Shown: in pieces, positions 1,300 through 52,740 of the stretch
Numbering within the stretch: the stretch's first letter is position 1
How the letters are laid out: every line of letters starts with the position of its first letter
Origin: an uncultured Gammaproteobacteria bacterium
Lineage (GTDB): Bacteria > Patescibacteriota > Patescibacteriia > UBA1558 > 2-01-FULL-52-15
DNA: 64,000 nucleotides
NCBI GenBank assembly: GCA_964402565.1
Contig: CAYOCJ010000001.1
Coordinates: forward strand, 504,802 to 568,801
Direction of reading: 5' to 3'
The notes under the pieces: model-generated
What the model saw: the letters and a program-made list of their open reading frames with translations, nothing else
Told to the model about the DNA's origin: nothing
The model's database searches: none
Program-made: the position numbers and the translations under genes

Positions 1300-4200
1300 A
1301 TGTTAAAAAAGCTACATACCAAAAGGGGGGTACGTACCGGCTTTTACGTCTTCGTCATTGCCGGTTTAGTTTTAAATAATTTCAGTAGCATCAGGATCCC
1401 AGTGACCTATGCTGCTGACAGCGGATTCTTCGCAGCAAACGCGACCGTTGCAAGCAATAGCGTCACCAGTCCTGACAATGGCTGGGTATCTGATGATAAT
1501 CGCGCAACGTTCAATGCAACAGGCGATACCGCTGATTATAGCTTCGGAAACCTTGGTTTGCCGGCAAATGCCCAGATCGATGGCATTGAAGTTACGATCG
1601 AAGGCCAGAGATCGAGTAGCCGCAATTTGAGCGCAGCGCTATGGAATGCTTCGAACAGTAACCCAGACGCTTATAGCTCAAGCTCAACCGCAACGTTGAA
1701 CACGAATAGCGACACCGTCGTCACGCTCGGCGGACCAACATCAAAGTGGGGCAAGAACTGGGATTCAAATGATTTTGGTGCATCGTTCAAGATCCGAGTA
1801 GCTGGCGCCTCAGGCAGCGGAAACGCCCTGTTGGATCAGCTTCGAGTCAAAGTCTACTACAGCACCTTACCTCAGAGTGCTGAAAATCCATCACTTCCAA
1901 ACTCATGTGGCTTGGATGTGTCTTTAGTTTTGGACAACTCTGCATCCATCGACAACACTGAACTCGGTCAGATGAAGACTGCTTTCAAAGGTTTCGTTGA
2001 TGCATTAGCACCAGGAACTCCAACAGATTTCTCAGTCACGAAGTTCAATAGCAATGGCAGCACTGTATTGGACCCATTCTCTGCAAACGCAACAACGGTG
2101 AAGAATGCGATCGACTCTGTAACCACCTCAAGCGGTCACACAAACTGGGAAGATGGTTTGAACGTTTCTTTCGGGATCTCAGACCCGCGACCTTCTAATC
2201 CGAACGTCATGGTCTTTGCTTCTGACGGAGACCCAAACCGCAAGATCGGTTCAGTCGCTGACATTTCAGCTTTCGACGCAATGACAGCTGCTATCAATAA
2301 GGCAAATACGATCAAAGGCGCTGGCACTCGAATAATTACTCTCGGTGTCGGTAACGCTATCAATACTGCGAACTTGGTCGATATTTCAAGCGCTGACGCA
2401 AACTTCACTACAGCAAACTTCAGCGATCTGAATACAACTTTACAGAACCTCGCTCAGGAGCTTTGTGGCGGAACCATCACGGTTACCAAGAGAATTGGCA
2501 CCCCAGACAGTTCTGTTGCTGCGGGTGAAGGCTGGACATTCAATATCGGCGGAAACCCGAACAAAAACACTGACACAAATGGACAGACTCCATCAGTAAA
2601 TTTGACGAACGGAACCTACGTTGTAACCGAAACCGGCGGCCCTTCAGGCTATGCGTTCAATAGCGCAACATGCGAAGGCGCGACCAATGATGGTTCGTCG
2701 ATCGCAAATGGCGTTGAAGGAATCCAGGTTGGAACGAATGATATTGTCTCATGCACATTCTATAACACTGCAAATGCAGGAACACTAACCGTCATTAAGA
2801 ACGTTGTTGGCGGTGATGCGCAGGCATCTGATTTCAACCTAACGGTAGATAATGGTAACCCGGGATCATTCCCAGGCAGTTCAATAGGCACTGCGGTTAC
2901 AGTTGCTGCTGGAGCATCATACAATGTTGGTGAAGATCCAGTATCAAACTACTCGCCAAGCTATTCTGAAGGCTGTTCAGGTGTTATGCAGCCAGGTGGC
3001 CAGGTTGAGTGCACTGTTACCAATACATACACACCGCCTCAGGAGACAACCGGAACAGTAACCGTGATCAAAAAAGTCACTAAGGATAATGGCGGCACCG
3101 CTGAAGTGGGCGACTTTACCCTTATGGTTGGCGATACATCTGTTGTATCCGGTGAAGCTAATGCATTTTTCCCTGGGCCATACGCGGTCAGCGAAACCGG
3201 CGGCCCTTCAGGCTATGCGGGTTCATTCAGCGGAGACTGCGATGAAAATGGAAATATAAACGTTGTTGCAGGCGAGTCATATGTCTGCACCATCACCAAT
3301 GATGATATTCAACCGAAACTGACCGTTCAAAAGATCGTTGTTGGCGGTAACCTCGATGCAAATAACGTCCCCTTATTCGTGAATGGAGACCCAGTCACCA
3401 ATAATGTTACGAACGGATTTGATGCAGGGACTTACACTGTCAGTGAAACGCCGCAACCAAACTATATTCCAAGTTTCAGTGAGAATTGTCCAAATGGACA
3501 GATCTCATTGGTAGTAGGACAGGAAGCTACCTGTACCATTACGAACACCTACAATCCGCCGGTCGAACAGGACACGACCAATATCGTCGCAACTAAGATC
3601 GTCTGTCAGGATGAAGCAGACTTGCCGAACTGGGGAGAGACCGGTCAGCCGGATATCACCTCTTCGACAGCTGCAGATTTCTTAGCAACACACCCTGGTT
3701 GCCACTTGGCTCCAGACTGGACCTTCCAATACGGCTTTGCTGATAAAGAAGGCCAGGAAGGTGTCGACAAGCTGCCCGGAGATATCATCGGCGACGCAGA
3801 TGGTACGGACTCTACTGGTATGTGCAATGCACCATACTGCGGAGCTAATACCAATACCGGAACCGGCTACAGCGACTGGAAATCATTCGGACCGACAAAC
3901 GGTTCAGGTGAAGCATCAGTTTCGATCAGCGATCTTGAAGGAGCATCTTCTCTCTGGGTTCGTGAATCATTGAAGCCCGGCTATATCCCGTTCACCTATC
4001 CGCCACAGGGTCCGGATGAGAACAATGTAACTGCTGAGATCTATTGCCATAAGGATACGAACCATTACGACAACTATGACAATATTGAAGATGTCTCAGC
4101 TGGAAATACCTACTACTGTGTAGCATTCAATGCACCAAAGCCATTGACTATCGTTGCAAATAAGATCGTTTGTGAAAATGAATCAGACTTGCCGAACTGG

Positions 4201-5091
4201 GGAGAGACCGGTCAGCCGGATATCACCTCAAGTACCGCGACTGAATTCCTGGACACACATCCAAATTGCCACTTACAACCTGATTGGAAGTTCCAGTGGG
4301 GATATGGTGACAAGGATGGCCAAGAAGGCGTCGATAAGCTTCCAGGCGACTTCGTAGGTGAGGCTACTGCTGCCGGTGATTCAACCGGCATGTGCAGCAC
4401 CCCATACTGCGGTGCGAATACAGAGACAGGCCTTGGCTACTCAAACTGGAAGACTTTTGGCCCTACCGATGTAAATGGTACGACCTCAGTGAATATTTCA
4501 GACCTGCAGGGTGCTTCATTGATCTGGGTACGTGAAGTCTTGAAAGATGGGTATATTCCATTCACCTATCCGCCAGAAGCACCGGATGCTGACAATGTGT
4601 CGGCGGAGATTTACTGCAGCATGGATACTAACCACTACGATAATTACGACAATATCGCAAATCCAGAGCTTGGAAATACATACTACTGCGTAGCGTTCAA
4701 TGCTCCAAAGCCTGGTACTGATGTCTGTAACAATATCGAAGGAATTCAGTCAATTATCCCTGATGGTATGGTCTCGAACGGCGAAGGCGGTTGTGAGACC
4801 CCGCAGGATCCAGGCGGTGGTAGTTCGATCACAACCTCAGGCGGTGGTGGTGGAGGAGGAGGCGGTGGCGGAGGAATTCCGAATTTCCCGAACCAGCCAA
4901 CTGGCTCTGATAATCCAAAAGTAGAAGGTTTCTCTACAACCGTTCCTGATAACCCGACTGTTCTCGGATTCGAAGTATTGCCGAATACAGGCGGTGACCT
5001 TACCGGCTACTATGCGGCTGTCAGCACACTCTTTACGCTTATTCTCAGCACGCTCTACGTAAGCTATCGTAGACGCTCAGCGAAAGCATAA
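1300..5091 (+). CDS. Sortase-anchored surface adhesin: signal peptide, vWA domain (MIDAS DxSxS), several Ig-like/CnaB-like beta-sandwich repeats, two tandem ~189-aa Cys-rich repeats, poly-Gly linker, LPNTG sorting signal
   Basis: N-terminal hydrophobic signal (FYVFVIAGLVL). DVSLVLDNSASID vWA MIDAS motif. Repeated T-V-x-K-x-V / VGG..DA..FNL segments typical of isopeptide/CnaB-type domains. C-terminus LPNTGG followed by a hydrophobic TM segment and an RRRSAKA tail, the classic cell-wall sorting signal. A sortase gene lies immediately downstream. Confidence 0.85.
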   Translation: MLKKLHTKRGVRTGFYVFVIAGLVLNNFSSIRIPVTYAADSGFFAANATVASNSVTSPDNGWVSDDNRATFNATGDTADYSFGNLGLPANAQIDGIEVTIEGQRSSSRNLSAALWNASNSNPDAYSSSSTATLNTNSDTVVTLGGPTSKWGKNWDSNDFGASFKIRVAGASGSGNALLDQLRVKVYYSTLPQSAENPSLPNSCGLDVSLVLDNSASIDNTELGQMKTAFKGFVDALAPGTPTDFSVTKFNSNGSTVLDPFSANATTVKNAIDSVTTSSGHTNWEDGLNVSFGISDPRPSNPNVMVFASDGDPNRKIGSVADISAFDAMTAAINKANTIKGAGTRIITLGVGNAINTANLVDISSADANFTTANFSDLNTTLQNLAQELCGGTITVTKRIGTPDSSVAAGEGWTFNIGGNPNKNTDTNGQTPSVNLTNGTYVVTETGGPSGYAFNSATCEGATNDGSSIANGVEGIQVGTNDIVSCTFYNTANAGTLTVIKNVVGGDAQASDFNLTVDNGNPGSFPGSSIGTAVTVAAGASYNVGEDPVSNYSPSYSEGCSGVMQPGGQVECTVTNTYTPPQETTGTVTVIKKVTKDNGGTAEVGDFTLMVGDTSVVSGEANAFFPGPYAVSETGGPSGYAGSFSGDCDENGNINVVAGESYVCTITNDDIQPKLTVQKIVVGGNLDANNVPLFVNGDPVTNNVTNGFDAGTYTVSETPQPNYIPSFSENCPNGQISLVVGQEATCTITNTYNPPVEQDTTNIVATKIVCQDEADLPNWGETGQPDITSSTAADFLATHPGCHLAPDWTFQYGFADKEGQEGVDKLPGDIIGDADGTDSTGMCNAPYCGANTNTGTGYSDWKSFGPTNGSGEASVSISDLEGASSLWVRESLKPGYIPFTYPPQGPDENNVTAEIYCHKDTNHYDNYDNIEDVSAGNTYYCVAFNAPKPLTIVANKIVCENESDLPNWGETGQPDITSSTATEFLDTHPNCHLQPDWKFQWGYGDKDGQEGVDKLPGDFVGEATAAGDSTGMCSTPYCGANTETGLGYSNWKTFGPTDVNGTTSVNISDLQGASLIWVREVLKDGYIPFTYPPEAPDADNVSAEIYCSMDTNHYDNYDNIANPELGNTYYCVAFNAPKPGTDVCNNIEGIQSIIPDGMVSNGEGGCETPQDPGGGSSITTSGGGGGGGGGGGGIPNFPNQPTGSDNPKVEGFSTTVPDNPTVLGFEVLPNTGGDLTGYYAAVSTLFTLILSTLYVSYRRRSAKA
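3587..4713 (+). repeat. Intragenic tandem duplication (2 x ~567 bp) encoding a 6-Cys domain (KIVC..DLPNWGETGQPDITSST...CHL.PDW...PYCGANT...NHYDNYDNI...YYCVAFNAPKP)
   Basis: Two ~189-aa protein repeats with >75% identity. They include a 44-nt perfectly identical DNA stretch (3619-3662 and 4185-4228). Confidence 0.85.
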
Positions 5092-5108: not shown

Positions 5109-5765
5109 ATGCAGCTCAGGAAACGATACACATTCCTTGCAATCATCATTCTGGCCATATTCGCGGTAACGCTGATATGGCCAGGGTTTGTTATTAATGC
5201 ATTAAGCGAATTCGTAAGCGGCATTAAACAGGGCAGCGACGTCATACAAAAGATACATACCCCGAGCGACATCTTGTCTGAGATCAATTTCGATGTACCG
5301 ACCGATACCAGCACGTCCACGGTCGCGTTTACACCGCCGGACGAGAATGGCGATAATCATTTGATCATACCGAGCATCGGGGTAAATGGCGAGGTTATCA
5401 TCAGCGACAGTCAAAATGCACTCAATAAAGGATTCTGGCATATTCCAGGCTCCGCAGTTCCGGGTACGAAAGGCAATATCGTTGTTTCAAGTCACCGATG
5501 GTTTCATATACCGCCGAATCCAGTAACGTTCTACCGGATCGATGAAGTCAAGATAGGCGATCCTGTCTTCTATAATTACAAAAACAAGCGCTACACGTAT
5601 CAGGTTACTGAAACGAAGATCGTCGACCCGACTGACGTGCATATCTTGGATCAGGACGAAGATAAATTGACGCTTTTTACCTGCCATCCGTTATTTTCTA
5701 CCAAGCAGAGGTATGTGGTGATAGCTACATTCGTTTCAGTCAGTGACATCCCAGCAAAGGAGTGA
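5109..5765 (+). CDS. Sortase (transpeptidase), N-terminal membrane anchor
   Basis: N-terminal TM segment (FLAIIILAIFAVTLIW). Conserved His region (NIVVSSHR). LTLFTCHP motif matching the sortase TLxTC catalytic Cys. It lies directly downstream of the LPNTG substrate gene. Confidence 0.8.
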   Translation: MQLRKRYTFLAIIILAIFAVTLIWPGFVINALSEFVSGIKQGSDVIQKIHTPSDILSEINFDVPTDTSTSTVAFTPPDENGDNHLIIPSIGVNGEVIISDSQNALNKGFWHIPGSAVPGTKGNIVVSSHRWFHIPPNPVTFYRIDEVKIGDPVFYNYKNKRYTYQVTETKIVDPTDVHILDQDEDKLTLFTCHPLFSTKQRYVVIATFVSVSDIPAKE

Positions 5766-24426: not shown

Positions 24427-27042
24427 TTAGCAACCAATACTCGTACAGCCTGTTTGCGTACAAGTAATACTACATGATGGCTGCACTGGCCCATTCGCAA
24501 ATGTATTGACGCCAAACACATTGTATGAGAAAGACTTTGCTTTTGTATCCCCTGCGCAAAAGGTATAGTCAAAACGATATGGTAATGCTGGCCACGTCGC
24601 CTGAGTCGCAGGTTCATCGATAGTACAAATCTTCTTACCTACGGCAGGTAATTCCTTTCCTGAACAATTAGTGCCTTGATCAGCTTGAATAGATCCGCCT
24701 TTGAGCTGGCATACTGTCAGTGCTGAAACAAGTGCGTTTGCCGTTGATTTTGCTGATGCTACACTCGTGTTATAGAGCTGATTACCAACTCCTGCGCTAG
24801 TCTCTGCTCCTAAATTCCGGGGCGGATACCAAACATCATAATAATCTAATTTACCCGGACCTGCGGGCTCATAACCTTTTGTCACTTCATCGCCATCGGA
24901 GTAGCCATCGCCATCTGAATCTTTTTTATTTGGATCCGAACCATAGTATGCTTCGACAATATCCGGCAGCCCATCAGCATCAGTATCAACGGCTAATGCC
25001 ACCTTTGCCTCCACTGAGATCTCAGTAGCATTTGCCGTGTTGACGCCATTCACATAATTAACAGCCTCATTCACGCCAAATCCGTTCGACATCCCCATGA
25101 ATCCTCCGCCTCCATTGCTTGCCTGTTCTTTTACGCGATGCGGAATTTGCATGGTATATTTCAATGTATACGCATCAGGATTGGTCAGCTTCTCGTATAT
25201 AAACTGCTGTCCGGTGAAACCATCCTGCGGAACAGTTTTCAAGAATGGCGTTTCAGCCAGCTGCTTCTCATACTCCGGATCATTGAAAGAGTTAAAACTA
25301 TCAGGAAAGTCGATCTGAACACCTGTCGCGTTGGTATTGGTAACGGTCTTTTTCGGCGCTTTCGTGAGCTTGCCTCGCGGCGTCGTCAACTCATCGAGTG
25401 AAGCAGGATAAGCCCCGGTATAGGATTTAAACTCAGACAAGGCGCTTCGAACCAGATCTACATTGGTTTGTTGACGCTGTGCACGGTACATTTCTTTTGT
25501 CATGCCGGTAAGCGCTAGTTGCGCATCTTCGAACGATATAGCACCAGCCGGCTCCTCTACCACGACCGGAACATTGATATTGCTTAAGCTCAATGTGAGA
25601 TCAAGTCCGATCTGTTTATCCTTCAGTTTCGTAGCTTTCGCGCCCGGTACGATCCTGAAGCGGTATGACATCTGGACCGGATAACCGGTGTTCTTATCGA
25701 TCAGTATCTTTAACTTGGTATTATTTTTTATAAAGGTTAAGTACTTGGTAAAGGTATCCGTTTTCATGTACCGAAGTGATGTTTCGTCAAGCTTTACCAT
25801 GGCATCAGCTCCGAACTTATCCTGTAATTCCTTGCTCAAATGCTCATACCAGGCAGCGACTTTTGTCTCGTCATACGTAACATTGTAGGCATAGGCCTGG
25901 GTCGTCCCTAAGCTTTCATCAGGCAATGACATGTCAACTTGCAGCACTTTGTCTTCATCCATAGTTTTCAGGATCGTCTGGAACTGTTCCAGCGCCTGAG
26001 TATTCTTCTGCTGCTTATCTCCGATAAACGTACCGATATATGACAAGTCTGAATATCCTACCAAATCCTCCGGCACTGCCTTGATCCATTTATTTTTAAT
26101 GGCGGTCAGATCAATGAATAGAGACGGAAATTTGGAAACCATGCCATAGTAGGTATCGCCTTTTTTCCGCAGCTCAAACTCGGCAGCGACATTGAAGTCT
26201 CCAAACGAAGCGTCCCCTCCAAGATGAAAATTGGCGTCTGCTTTTTTTGCCTGATCTTTCGTCGACGTGCCGCCTGCTCTGAGGTTAAAACTGAAATCAG
26301 ATGGCGCATAATCGAGGTACTCATCAGCGCCCTGCTCAAGCGTCGAAACCCAGGATGGCCTATGCGGTTCACCATTAAAGTAAAAATATGATTCGCTTTT
26401 CTTAGATAAGGTCACTTTTTTGCCATCGACCTGTGTTACTTCTTTTTTGCTATAGCCGGCGACTGCTTTTACGGCATCATCAGTCTCAAACGTGACTGAA
26501 AGCGCATAATCATCATTGCCAGCGTTTAATGCATAGGTAAAATCGCTCAGGTTCTTGGCTGTGAGTGCCGGCACATCAGAAAGCTGATTTGGATATGCGG
26601 TATTGCTTTGACGGTATACCGATAATGCGGACTGGATTGACTGCGCATCAGACACCCTATTCGCATCTCGCTCATACATTTGCGTGTCATTCACAAATTC
26701 AGGAAAGGTAAGAGGCTCGAACGCAGTCGCTCCTGCTTCCCTCGGCTCAGCCTGCAGGCCGAACTTAGCTTCGTACGTTGCTGAGTTTATCGACTGAATT
26801 TTAGAAAAAAAGTTTGCAAAAGCACTTTGCTTCGAAGCAGGACCCATACCCTGGAATGGCCAGATCTTAAAATAAAAAGCGGCTCCTGCATAGGAACCAA
26901 TCACGAGGACGCCGAGTAAGACGATAATAACCATCCATGGCGTTTTTTTAGCTGCCGGCTGCAATGGCTGTGACGACTCAGGCATGGTCGTAACCGGCAT
27001 AGGCGCCTGCTGCGGCGGCTGTTGATATGGTTGTTGGTCCAT
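24427..27042 (-). CDS. Large membrane-anchored surface protein: Pro/Gln-rich N-terminus, single TM, TSP3-like Ca-binding aspartate repeats, Cys-rich C-terminal domain
   Basis: TM segment WMVIIVLLGVLVIGSYAGAAFYF. DTDADGLPD...DSDGDGYSDGDE resembles type-3 thrombospondin Ca-binding loops. Ten Cys lie in the last 100 aa. Confidence 0.6.
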   Translation of the reverse strand: MDQQPYQQPPQQAPMPVTTMPESSQPLQPAAKKTPWMVIIVLLGVLVIGSYAGAAFYFKIWPFQGMGPASKQSAFANFFSKIQSINSATYEAKFGLQAEPREAGATAFEPLTFPEFVNDTQMYERDANRVSDAQSIQSALSVYRQSNTAYPNQLSDVPALTAKNLSDFTYALNAGNDDYALSVTFETDDAVKAVAGYSKKEVTQVDGKKVTLSKKSESYFYFNGEPHRPSWVSTLEQGADEYLDYAPSDFSFNLRAGGTSTKDQAKKADANFHLGGDASFGDFNVAAEFELRKKGDTYYGMVSKFPSLFIDLTAIKNKWIKAVPEDLVGYSDLSYIGTFIGDKQQKNTQALEQFQTILKTMDEDKVLQVDMSLPDESLGTTQAYAYNVTYDETKVAAWYEHLSKELQDKFGADAMVKLDETSLRYMKTDTFTKYLTFIKNNTKLKILIDKNTGYPVQMSYRFRIVPGAKATKLKDKQIGLDLTLSLSNINVPVVVEEPAGAISFEDAQLALTGMTKEMYRAQRQQTNVDLVRSALSEFKSYTGAYPASLDELTTPRGKLTKAPKKTVTNTNATGVQIDFPDSFNSFNDPEYEKQLAETPFLKTVPQDGFTGQQFIYEKLTNPDAYTLKYTMQIPHRVKEQASNGGGGFMGMSNGFGVNEAVNYVNGVNTANATEISVEAKVALAVDTDADGLPDIVEAYYGSDPNKKDSDGDGYSDGDEVTKGYEPAGPGKLDYYDVWYPPRNLGAETSAGVGNQLYNTSVASAKSTANALVSALTVCQLKGGSIQADQGTNCSGKELPAVGKKICTIDEPATQATWPALPYRFDYTFCAGDTKAKSFSYNVFGVNTFANGPVQPSCSITCTQTGCTSIGC

Positions 27043-33383: not shown

Positions 33384-35033
33384 TTAATTAGAGGCGCCGC
33401 TTTGATCCGCGCCCTCGGGATCATTTAACGGCTGCGTTGCATCATCACTGGCAGCACTCACATCAGCAAGACGCTGCAATACAAAATCTCTATCCAGGGC
33501 AGACAGGAACCATCCTGCCTGGGGGCCAGAATTTTTTCCCAAGAAACTTATGTAGATCGCGGAAAAAAGATCAGCAGGAGCAATGGCAAGCGTTGCCTTT
33601 ACCTCATGGATTTGCGTATGCAGCTCTTCACCAGTGAGTTCGTCATGTTCGCGAATATACTCGTAGATAGAACGCAACGACTGACGCTGTAAGGAGGTGA
33701 ACTCTTTTGCACCTTCGGGCGGTGCTTCTTGAATATCAAATTTATACTTTTCAGGGCTATACTGGGACAGCCATATTTTTGCATAGCGGGCCCTATCCTG
33801 ATACTCGCTCGCATCTGCATCGGTCAGTTGAGAACCTTTCATAGACGCAACTTTCTTCGCAAGATCAATGTGAGGCATTTGCACCAGATACGCTATCTGT
33901 GAGAAACGCGGCAGAAACGCTTCCTGAATCATGTTCCTGGACGAAGCCGGATAACATAATGGAAAAACCGATGTCCAATCTGATGCAGCGTTCTTAAAGT
34001 ATTCGCCTGCAATGGTGTCGAAATGATCATAGAGAATCGGAATGGTGTCTCCATAGGGTTCAAAGTCAATCTCATGCTTCGGCTCCTTCATCATAAGAAA
34101 GCGCAGCATGCGCGTCGGCAAAAGATCAGCAATTTCTTTTGCTGATGACCCTTTGCCTTTTGACGAGGACATCTTCGCACCACCGAGGGTAAAAAAATTA
34201 TAGGGAATATCGAGCGGCTCAGGGAACTGATAGATCTCTTTCAAAATTCGGCGCGCGATATCTCGCGATCCGCCTTTCGTATAGTGATCCTTTCCTCCGC
34301 CTTCCAGATGCACGCCTAGCACCATGAACTTTGCCGCCCATTCTACTTTCCAAGGCAATTTCGCTCGTCCGTCAAATGGATCTACTTTGCCAGAATGGCC
34401 GCAACCGACGGCCCACTTCACCAAATCAGCACTGCACGCATAAGATACTTGCTTGCCGTCCCATGCGGTCACCTTTGTAGTGCCTACTTTGCGGCATTGC
34501 TCACAGATGACCTGTAAGGGAAACCAATCATCGCCCTTATCAGATCCAGAAACCTCTTTATATATTTTTCTTATCTTGTCTGCATTGTCCAATGCAAGGC
34601 GAATGGCATTATTATATTTCCCGCCCAAATAAAGCGTACTCGAGCGATAGTACTCGGGCGTAAAGCCGGTATGTTCAACAGCAACCATAAACTCCTGCGC
34701 CCAGTACTCTGCATAGTTCGGTGCTGTCGGATCCGGTGAGGGTACCTCATACAAAGGACGCCCCATATAGGGACGATAGAGCTCCTGGTCAAGGTAGACC
34801 GGCAAACCGTCCATTGGGTCAAAATCATTCACTTCGAATAGGTACTTGTTTGGAATCTTCGCTTCGGTCAGCACATCTGAAACTATGCCATGAATGACGA
34901 CGCCTCTGAGCGAACCCACATGTACTCTGCCGGACATCGTTTTTTCATCGCGAATAATAAGAGGCTTGCCAGCGGCAATTTCTTTTGCAAAACGATTTTT
35001 AGCTGAATCTCGAAGTTTATATCCCCAAAACAT
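33384..35033 (-). CDS. lysK: Lysine--tRNA ligase, class I (LysK type)
   Basis: SGRVHVGSLRG (HIGH-equivalent) and KMSSSKG (KMSKS-equivalent), as in archaeal-type class I LysRS. Confidence 0.8.
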   Translation of the reverse strand: MFWGYKLRDSAKNRFAKEIAAGKPLIIRDEKTMSGRVHVGSLRGVVIHGIVSDVLTEAKIPNKYLFEVNDFDPMDGLPVYLDQELYRPYMGRPLYEVPSPDPTAPNYAEYWAQEFMVAVEHTGFTPEYYRSSTLYLGGKYNNAIRLALDNADKIRKIYKEVSGSDKGDDWFPLQVICEQCRKVGTTKVTAWDGKQVSYACSADLVKWAVGCGHSGKVDPFDGRAKLPWKVEWAAKFMVLGVHLEGGGKDHYTKGGSRDIARRILKEIYQFPEPLDIPYNFFTLGGAKMSSSKGKGSSAKEIADLLPTRMLRFLMMKEPKHEIDFEPYGDTIPILYDHFDTIAGEYFKNAASDWTSVFPLCYPASSRNMIQEAFLPRFSQIAYLVQMPHIDLAKKVASMKGSQLTDADASEYQDRARYAKIWLSQYSPEKYKFDIQEAPPEGAKEFTSLQRQSLRSIYEYIREHDELTGEELHTQIHEVKATLAIAPADLFSAIYISFLGKNSGPQAGWFLSALDRDFVLQRLADVSAASDDATQPLNDPEGADQSGASN

Positions 35034-50794: not shown

Positions 50795-52549
50795 TTATTC
50801 GAGTACAGCCTTAATACGCCTGACGCCAGCAGAACTAGCTTCTTCCTTTTGAATCTTAAGCTTTCCCATATCTTTCGTGTTCTGCACATGCGGACCACCG
50901 CAAATTTCTTTACTAAAGTCGCCCACAAAATAGACTTTGACTTTGTCTCCATACTTGTGCTCAAAAACACCTGTTGCGCCAATCTTCTTCGCATCAGCGA
51001 CTGACATCTCTTCGAAATGAACATCATGTCCCTTGGCGATCTCGGTATTGACCATTTCCTCTATTTTGTGAATCTCATATTCTTCAAGCTTGCGAGGAAA
51101 TGTAAAATCAAAACGCAAACGCTCAGCCGTGATATTACTGCCACGCTGGTTAATATCCTCGCGTCCCAAGATGCGCTTCATAGCCTCGAGCATGAGATGG
51201 TTTGCTGTATGATACTTCACTGTTTGATCACTATGATCAGCAAGTCCACCTTTGAATTTCCCGGCTGAGGCGGTGCGGCTTTTATCTTGATGGTCTTTCA
51301 TCAATGCAGTAAAGCTAGCAACATCGACTGATATATTCTTTTCATGTGCAAGCTCCTGCACCATTTCCAGTGGAAAACCATAACTTGAAAATAAGGTAAA
51401 TGCATCTTCACCAGAAATAGTTCCAGCTTTTGCATATTTCTCGAAAGTTCTGGTTCCTTGATCTATTGTCTTTGAAAACTTTTCCTGCTCCTTATGCAGC
51501 TCCTCTACTACTACATCATGATTACGTCCAAGTTCTGGATAGTCATTGTGATATTCTCGTGTAACGATCTGAACCAATGAATCAAATTCTTTGGAATCCA
51601 AATCAATCATCTTCGCGTAGCGTACCATACGGCGAATCAACCTGCGCAGGACATAACCCTGGTCAACATTCGAAGGCCGGATAGCTCGTTCATCAGCCAG
51701 CATGAAAACAGTAGCACGAATATGATCAACGATGATCCTAACAGCTCGATCGTTTCCTTGTGCCTTTTTCGCTGTTCGATTCACATGCGTAATGAGCGGC
51801 TCAACCGTATCAATGCTATAGACCGAGTCCTGACCATCAAGCACTGCAACGGTGCGCTCCAAGCCCATACCAGTATCAACATTTTTCTGCTTCAATGGCG
51901 TATAGGAGCCATCTTTCTGTTTTTCATAGGCCATAAATACATTATTCCAAATCTCGATCCAACGGCTATCTTTCGGATCATATATCTTGGGCGCAGGCTC
52001 ATTAGCGCTCCAGTAAAATATCTCTGTGTCAGGTCCGCAAGGACCAGAATCTCCTACTGGTCCCCAGAAATTATCATCGAGATACGCGATCCGATCTTTT
52101 GAAACGCCATGTAGTTGCCAAAGATGCGCTGTTTCTTCATCTCGTGGAATACCTTCTTTTTCATTGCCGTCGAAAACAGTAAATGCCAATTTATCCAGAG
52201 AAATACCAAGATATTTTTTATCTGTAAGGAATTCAAAGCTCCATTCAACGGCATCTGTTTTGAAATAGTCGCCTAAAGACCAATTGCCGAGCATTTCGAA
52301 AAAAGTCAGATGCGTACCATCGCCTACTTCATCGATATCCCCGGTACGGATACACTTCTGTGCATTGGCGAGCCTGAGACCCTGCGGATGCTTCTCTCCT
52401 TTGAGAAATGGGGTTAAGGGGTGCATACCAGCTGTGGTAAAGAGCACGGTCGGATCATTCTCTGGAATCAAAGAAGCCGAAGGCACGATCTCGTGGCCTT
52501 TGGAACGGAAAAAATTGAAGTAGAGGTTTTTGAGCTGACGGCTAGTCAT
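50795..52549 (-). CDS. alaS: Alanine--tRNA ligase, short form (catalytic + tRNA-binding + editing domains; lacks the C-terminal C-Ala domain)
   Basis: N-terminal FNFFRSKGHEIVPSASLIPENDPTVLFTTAGM. Editing-domain HTANHL...CGGPHV Zn motif. The gene is 584 aa, versus about 870 aa for typical AlaS. The start was trimmed to MTSRQLK at 52549. Confidence 0.85.
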   Translation of the reverse strand: MTSRQLKNLYFNFFRSKGHEIVPSASLIPENDPTVLFTTAGMHPLTPFLKGEKHPQGLRLANAQKCIRTGDIDEVGDGTHLTFFEMLGNWSLGDYFKTDAVEWSFEFLTDKKYLGISLDKLAFTVFDGNEKEGIPRDEETAHLWQLHGVSKDRIAYLDDNFWGPVGDSGPCGPDTEIFYWSANEPAPKIYDPKDSRWIEIWNNVFMAYEKQKDGSYTPLKQKNVDTGMGLERTVAVLDGQDSVYSIDTVEPLITHVNRTAKKAQGNDRAVRIIVDHIRATVFMLADERAIRPSNVDQGYVLRRLIRRMVRYAKMIDLDSKEFDSLVQIVTREYHNDYPELGRNHDVVVEELHKEQEKFSKTIDQGTRTFEKYAKAGTISGEDAFTLFSSYGFPLEMVQELAHEKNISVDVASFTALMKDHQDKSRTASAGKFKGGLADHSDQTVKYHTANHLMLEAMKRILGREDINQRGSNITAERLRFDFTFPRKLEEYEIHKIEEMVNTEIAKGHDVHFEEMSVADAKKIGATGVFEHKYGDKVKVYFVGDFSKEICGGPHVQNTKDMGKLKIQKEEASSAGVRRIKAVLE

Positions 52550-52740
52550 GGGAATTAGTATATTGTAAAAGTACAAGGAAAACAAGATTTTTTATATTCA
52601 GGAGCTTTTACTACTATAAACTATTGACAAAATATATTATTTATGCTATTTTACTCGGTCTTTTGCATCACAGTCAGAAGGCTTAGTTCTTCGAAATCAC
52701 AATTTACGGCGACTATGGTCGCTCTAAGAAGGGAGAAAAT

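Follow-up and report, generated by a model that had tools for sequence, protein, structure and literature searches.

The window analysed here is a stretch of 64,000 nucleotides (nt), positions 504,802 to 568,801 of the forward strand of contig CAYOCJ010000001.1 (assembly GCA_964402565.1), deposited as an uncultured Gammaproteobacteria bacterium and placed in the Patescibacteriota by GTDB. Near its start, one open reading frame (ORF) in the ORF list, 1300-5091 on the plus strand and 1263 amino acids (aa) long, encodes a surface protein that holds two tandem copies of a cysteine-rich module. The structure, origin and likely role of this module pair are the subject of the present work, and the features of the locus are collected in Table 1.

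From its domain order, the protein reads as a fibrillar adhesin, probably anchored by a sortase and carrying a von Willebrand factor A (VWA) head. The DxSxS motif of the VWA domain is DNSAS (aa 212-216). Each of the four SpaA/SpaA_2 domains contains a Lys...Glu...Cys...Cys-x3-Asn pattern, with K7, E52, C66, C78 and N82 invariant in their alignment. The C-terminus has the features of an LPXTG surface protein, namely LPNTG at aa 1227-1231, a hydrophobic segment at aa 1237-1256 and a basic tail (RRRS), with a sortase gene nearby; the LPXTG anchor model TIGR01167 scored 14.9 bits, just below its cut-off of 15.9. The sortase gene starts 18 nt downstream, and the same order was found in the nearest relative (locus L001) and in an independent assembly contig (L081). 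The region of about 160 aa before the VWA domain (1417-1900, aa ~40-200) had no Pfam or NCBIfam match, and an exact-product look-up of the 1263-aa protein returned no record.

A direct-repeat search recovered the module pair as three collinear segments, all within the ORF: 3582-3797/4149-4364 (spacing 567, 75% identity), 3931-4092/4501-4662 (spacing 570, 72% identity) and 4101-4142/4671-4712 (spacing 570, 90% identity). The tandem six-cysteine copies described in the initial annotation were confirmed at 3583-4143 and 4150-4713, with a period of 567/570 nt, and every motif quoted for them (DLPNWGETGQPDITSS, CHLxPDW, PYCGANT, NHYDNYDNI and YYCVAFNAPKP) was present in both copies. When aligned, the copies were identical at 138 of 188 aa (73%) and at 394 of 561 nt (70%), with one 1-codon indel. 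The cysteines lie at aa 769, 801, 842, 847, 916 and 940 in copy 1 and at aa 958, 990, 1032, 1037, 1106 and 1130 in copy 2. The perfect DNA identity between copies that had been put at 44 nt is real, but it extends over 46 nt (3617-3662 = 4184-4229) and is the only long exact stretch, the next measuring 15 nt. No third copy of the module was found within the window. Tandem Repeats Finder, whose period limit is 500, did not report the pair. Chance similarity of the copies was considered and rejected, as was the variable region of a diversity-generating retroelement, since adenine was not singled out in the differences between the copies and each repeat is a complete coding module.

The repeat was also visible in an independent assembly. 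The Logan contig L081 (run SRR12313479) starts at 4200 and matches the window perfectly over the next 10358 nt. Its start lies 30 nt (k-1) short of where the second 46-nt tract ends, as expected when a k=31 graph meets a real exact repeat, and the repeat is thus independently confirmed. In all, two independent Logan assemblies, reached via the neighbouring xth gene, were identical to the window downstream of the tract and are silent on copy number. The contig of the second assembly (SRR12313480, L082) breaks at 4735, shortly past copy 2 and some 100 nt upstream of the 12 glycine codons (4840-4875).

Table 1. Features of the surface-protein locus in the 64-kb window
Feature	Position	Strand	Evidence
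Surface-protein gene (reads as a sortase-anchored fibrillar adhesin)	1300..5091	+	single long ORF; Pfam VWA, SpaA and SpaA_2 matches; near-threshold LPXTG anchor match
Putative N-terminal signal sequence: basic MLKKLHTKRGVR, hydrophobic stretch, TYA/AD	1300..1416	+	translation read by eye; kept in ortholog P0003
VWA domain, aa 206-380, likely adhesive head	1915..2439	+	Pfam PF00092, E 2.1e-14
Four prealbumin-like (SpaA/SpaA_2) stalk domains, aa ~390-760	2467..3579	+	Pfam PF19403 (4 stretches), PF17802
First module copy (long form, aa 762-948) with six Cys and the putative isopeptide triad K766/E889/N944	3583..4143	+	
46-nt tract of copy 1 that encodes DLPNWGETGQPDITS; exact match to copy 2, putative gene-conversion patch	3617..3662	+	
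Second module copy (long form, aa 951-1138) with six Cys and the putative triad K955/E1079/N1134	4150..4713	+	repeat search, alignments
46-nt tract of copy 2, exact match to 3617-3662	4184..4229	+	Logan contig L081 begins inside, at 4200
Start (CNNIEGIQ) of short Cys-bounded motif CNNIEGIQSIIPDGMVSNGEGGC, which continues beyond 4749	4726..4749	+	translation; ortholog alignment
12 glycine codons in a row, flexible linker	4840..4875	+	
Cell-wall sorting signal: LPNTG (4978-4992), hydrophobic segment (5008-5067), RRRS tail	4978..5088	+	
Sortase gene, 218 aa, TLFTCHP active-site motif	5109..5765	+	Pfam PF04203, E 6.6e-27; TIGR01076 79.4 bits, above cut-off

The module as a family and its predicted fold

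Neither copy matched a Pfam or NCBIfam model (Pfam E ≤ 1). Pfam also gave no match over the module in 10 relatives, nor at E ≤ 10 for the C-terminal half, an insert-deleted construct or short-form members, and a PDB sequence profile search returned chance-level matches only. The view that the domain belongs to no named family therefore stands for sequence matches in Pfam, NCBIfam and PDB. It does not extend to the fold, which is predicted to be the well-known CnaB/prealbumin-like sandwich, or to the idea of a module peculiar to this gene, as the family is large.

The size of the family depended on how it was searched. A word-indexed homology search gave 2 matches from one copy and 11 from an alignment, and an exhaustive profile search of representatives at 50% identity gave 1045 clusters at E ≤ 1e-3, 676 of them at E ≤ 1e-30. 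Family proteins range from about 300 to 3300 aa and carry 1-4 modules each, often in tandem, although many giant proteins have a single copy. The module exists in a short form of about 150-170 aa with four cysteines and in a long form that adds a Cys-bridged loop of about 35 aa; both window copies are of the long form. The 317 loci found in species-representative genomes bear titles that name many Patescibacteria lineages as well as DPANN archaea (Woese-, Micr-, Iain- and Burarchaeum). These lineages were taken from record titles, and several titles of 'binchicken' metagenome-assembled genomes (MAGs; 'uncultured Gammaproteobacteria', 'Bdellovibrionales', 'Saccharibacteria') look unreliable. 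On some of the archaeal-labelled contigs, the module gene adjoins genes for Elp3, deoxyhypusine synthase, geranylgeranyl reductase or a KaiC/ArlH-like protein. Giant module proteins were seen on the DPANN-labelled contigs L019, L020, L021, L023, L029, L031, L044, L048, L061, L067 and L077. The protein of L023, the sole DPANN-labelled one examined for an anchor, lacks LPXTG at its C-terminus.

AlphaFold2, run with a 42-sequence alignment, returned a model with a pLDDT of 84.5 and a pTM of 0.84, in which the module is predicted to be a seven-stranded CnaB/prealbumin-like β-sandwich with about 90 residues inserted after the first strand. The seven-stranded sandwich is that of the CnaB-like class, by which we mean the Pfam clan Transthyretin (CL0287) as defined in PMC12617251. 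The best structural matches were pilin shaft and B-repeat stalk domains. By sequence, no model of the clan (SpaA, SpaA_2-4, Cna_B, SdrD_B, FctA, pilinD1/D3, DUF5979, DUF7601) matched. The predicted structure supports the assignment of the fold, while membership of a known family by sequence is not supported and the bonds described below are putative.

Putative cross-links and the role of the module

In module numbering, the candidate isopeptide triad is K5/E128/N183, corresponding to K766/E889/N944 in copy 1 and K955/E1079/N1134 in copy 2. The three residues occurred together in 255 of 265 instances, and in all 103 module copies of the fetched loci, 13 of which are on archaeal-labelled contigs. 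In the five instances in which K5 was replaced by L, A, I or M, E128 was replaced too; four S/N replacements retained E128. In the model, the triad residues fall in the first, central and last strands (strands 2-8, 123-128 and 178-183). Their K...E...N order, with lysine, catalytic glutamate and asparagine as in the CnaB-like class, and their E-to-N spacing of 55 agree with that class, for example with Lys497/Glu571/Asn627 of SpaA_2 (Table 1 of PMC12617251). In RrgB, Lys-Asn bonds are formed with an essential Glu (PMC3132780). The C-x3-N of the last strand of the module recurs in the SpaA_2 domains of the same protein. The module also has a 'VRExxxPGY' segment, which we take to resemble the pilin E-box.

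The cysteines show a similar regularity. C8 and C40 are invariant; C155 and C179 were both replaced by Ala in 2 of 2 cases; and C81 and C86 were found only as a pair, in 38 of 38 long forms. SpaA_2-type domains are reported to combine isopeptide bonds with disulfides (PMC12617251).

Considering these features together with the age of the pair and the tract discussed below, we think it rather probable that the locus encodes an old tandem pair of covalently stabilised, CnaB-like stalk modules of about 188 residues in a sortase-anchored, VWA-headed Patescibacteria adhesin, with the 46-nt tract as a later conversion patch. In such a protein, each copy would form an autocatalytic Lys-Asn isopeptide bond joining its first to its last strand, with the triad Glu as catalyst. 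Two family-wide disulfides per copy (C8-C40 and C155-C179) would be added to it, and the extra Cys pair in the loop of the long form could provide a third covalent stabilisation. The two modules would then act as rigid spacers, resistant to proteases and force, that keep the VWA head off the wall.

Alternatively, the module might serve mainly in ligand binding, as an adhesive or lectin-like and possibly Ca2+-dependent domain whose elaboration of about 90 residues forms a binding site with the invariant acidic and aromatic residues. Such a role would account for the many invariant residues outside the triad (E11, L14, P15, N16, W46, F48, W99, E152, D158, Y162, D163 and N164), for an N-terminal elaboration that has no counterpart in plain CnaB domains, and for the single-copy module of many giant proteins. 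We nevertheless regard it as unlikely, because the module sits between the stalk domains and the wall anchor with the VWA head beyond, because it is frequently repeated in tandem, and because its best structural matches are themselves shaft and stalk domains. The stalk and ligand-binding roles are not mutually exclusive.

Age of the pair and the 46-nt identical tract

The initial annotation had taken the pair for a recent duplication, a reading that does not hold. Once the copies were aligned, their identity proved far lower than this would require (70% in DNA, 73% in protein). Only 70 of the 138 identical residues (51%) were encoded by identical codons, and NG86 estimates between the copies gave a dN of 0.19 and a saturated dS of about 4. 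A recent tandem duplicate would be near-identical at synonymous sites along its whole length; here, such identity was limited to the single 46-nt run. The nearest relative found, L001 (CAYRBH010000001.1), offers a yardstick, as it is a syntenic ortholog locus whose protease, surface protein, sortase and xth genes follow one another as in the window. Its flanking proteins are 72-82% identical to those of the window, and its alanine-tRNA ligase is 85% identical. DNA identity was 70.2% between copy 1 and copy 2, 72.5% between copy 1 and the L001 module, and 70.2% between copy 2 and the L001 module, and a neighbour-joining tree of the three was nearly a star. Since the copies are as distant from one another as from the L001 module, they have been separate for about as long as the two species, and on these distances the duplication dates from no later than the divergence from the closest sequenced relative.

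The surface proteins of the two loci differ elsewhere. The head and stalk are swapped between window 1300-3579 and L001:3341-3995, and the signal peptide, modules and C-terminal anchor are common to both. The window protein has the unassigned region of about 160 aa, the VWA domain and four SpaA-type domains; in L001 their place is taken by another N-terminal domain and two Cys-rich DUF4215 repeats. By sequence comparison, this is domain shuffling at a fixed locus. A short motif of the form C-x-N-I-E/D-G-x-Q...PDG...G-x-C follows the modules at window 4726-4800 and also in P0004. The window has one copy of it, and L001 has three diverged copies (L001:5138-5385).

A recent duplication was also part of a proposal that the identical stretches drive frequent expansion and contraction of copy number and so vary the length of the adhesin. 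The exact 46-nt direct repeat with its in-frame spacing speaks for this proposal, since unequal exchange at the tract would be in frame (567 nt = 189 codons) and length variation is therefore possible. The module copies of L001 (L001:3996-5126), which have the same period of 567 nt and show no differences over 564 nt of it, point the same way, as do the 1-4 modules of family proteins and the span of identity of adjacent pairs, from 37% to about 100%. The perfect duplicate of L001, together with the one-versus-three difference in the CxNIxGxQ motif, indicates that such changes occur in the lineage, and by analogy a recombinogenic change of copy number in the window gene is plausible. For the L001 duplicate itself there are three candidate explanations: full homogenisation, duplication in the very recent past, and an artefact of assembling short reads. 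The saturated synonymous sites, the distance to the copy of another species and the confinement of identity to one long stretch all run counter to the proposal, and the two assemblies that match the window downstream of the tract say nothing of copy number. No close relative turned up in metagenome contigs, either by the degenerate DLPNWGETGQPDIT pattern or by a copy 1 protein query. We consider the proposal as a whole distinctly improbable; nothing in the present data shows frequent or ongoing length variation here.

The tract itself was longer than the divergence of the copies would lead one to expect. When synonymous codons were drawn independently from the codon usage of the gene, a 46-nt run was reached in 0 of 20000 simulations, and permuting the same-codon states gave a run of codons at least as long as the observed one in 7 of 20000 cases. 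Within the tract, the window and L001 differ synonymously at most codons, so that the tract is not under constraint at the nucleotide level. It takes in an 'ETGQ' linker that is variable between proteins and identical within a protein, a signature of homogenisation rather than of shared functional sequence. Similar runs were found in other intragenic pairs with 70-78% DNA identity: 50 nt in L002 (L002:596-1780), 58 nt in L040 (L040:353-1864), 78 nt in L049 (L049:3257-4477) and 85 nt in L063 (L063:3998-5072). In the neighbour-joining tree, both copies of P0005, P0006, P0009 and P0010 paired by protein and not by position. Two marks of gene conversion were thus found, an overlong tract of identity on the one hand and, on the other, a tract unconserved between species in copies that group by gene. 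Collectively, the tract statistics, the lack of conservation in L001, the similar tracts in the family, the grouping by protein and the homogenisation in L001 point to short-tract gene conversion (concerted evolution), and the 46-nt run is best read as a probable short conversion tract later than the duplication.

That the 46 nt are held identical by selection acting directly on the nucleotides, for instance through mRNA structure, strict codon choice or a site for regulation or recombination, is highly improbable and was rejected on the synonymous differences from L001: long tracts do fall on the same N-terminal KIVC..DLPNWG..PDIT region in 4 of 7 intragenic pairs (window, L002, L049 and L063), but those of L040 and L058 lie elsewhere in the module, and the linker within the tract is protein-specific yet identical between copies.

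Several points weigh against the reading of the pair as old, cross-linked stalk modules patched by conversion. The Foldseek matches of the model in the PDB were weak (best E 0.01, TM ~0.3-0.4). No CnaB-like Pfam family could be linked by sequence, with hmmscan empty even for trimmed constructs, and an hhalign comparison of the module profile with SpaA_2-like profiles fell short of significance (E 0.1-0.2). The invariant E11, LPN 14-16, E152, D158 and YDN 162-164 have no role in the stalk model and might instead bind a ligand or a metal. Gene conversion is deduced from patterns and explains the preference of the tracts for the N-terminal region only loosely. Finally, the perfect duplicate of L001 comes from a short-read MAG.

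Neighbouring genes, significance and comparison with known systems

Elsewhere in the window, the minus strand at 24427-27042 encodes an 870-aa protein, possibly a further surface protein, for which the sole NCBIfam match was a weak local one to the gliding-motility lipoprotein CglD. The lysine-tRNA ligase at 33384-35033 (minus strand) is the class-I (archaeal-type) enzyme, and the alanine-tRNA ligase at 50795-52585 (minus strand) is a short form of 595 aa, whose next-best named relative is a Komeilibacteria (Patescibacteria) sequence with 66% identity. ARAGORN found no tRNA genes in the 64-kb window.

A diverged tandem pair of domains in an adhesin is ordinary, and the remaining interest lies in the module itself. 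In a 2025 survey, all predicted intramolecular isopeptide bonds fell within 26 Pfam families (PMC12617251). The module lies outside all 26 by sequence, yet has the predicted fold and a near-invariant Lys/Glu/Asn triad. It is abundant in bacteria of the Candidate Phyla Radiation (CPR) and in DPANN archaea, both made up of organisms that attach to host cells through proteins as yet little understood. Our wider proposal, held tentatively and with a little less than even confidence, is that the module represents an unmodelled family of CnaB-like stalk domains cross-linked by isopeptide bonds and disulfides and specific to surface proteins of CPR/Patescibacteria and DPANN, the two large groups of ultrasmall episymbionts. 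Such a distribution would imply inter-domain transfer and a shared way in which attachment structures are built, with the copies in a gene kept partly alike by conversion. If the bond is confirmed, the catalogue of isopeptide domains would gain a new family, CnaB-like isopeptide chemistry would reach DPANN surface proteins, and adhesin annotation in CPR and DPANN would gain a handle, possibly along with new Tag/Catcher scaffolds.

Among known systems, the Ole e 1-like pollen allergens (Lig v 1, 6YOA; Pla l 1, 4Z8W) resemble the module in fold only. They are eukaryotic, secreted, single-domain proteins without the Lys/Glu/Asn triad and without a repeat or anchor context.

The Cna/Sdr B repeats share with the module the role of stalk repeats, which in the module is putative, and have no sequence similarity to it. 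The B units of Staphylococcus aureus Cna are about 187 aa long and number 1 to 4 between strains. One such unit comprises two CnaB domains, whereas the module unit would be one elaborated domain. The Cna B repeats are also nearly identical within a gene, unlike the window copies with their 73% identity.

The closest likeness in fold is to the CnaB-like isopeptide domains (SpaA, SpaA_2/3/4, Cna_B, SdrD_B, FctA and GramPos_pilinD1; RrgB, 2Y1V; SpaA, 5F44). The module occurs in Patescibacteria and DPANN archaea and not in Bacillota or Actinomycetota, and compared with these Gram-positive domains its bond is putative. A plain CnaB-like domain is about half the size of the module, which adds its ~90 residues after strand A and, unlike that class, has four family-wide cysteines. 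The predicted elaboration consists of a helix, an LPNWG loop and, in the long form carried by both copies of the window protein, the Cys-bridged loop.

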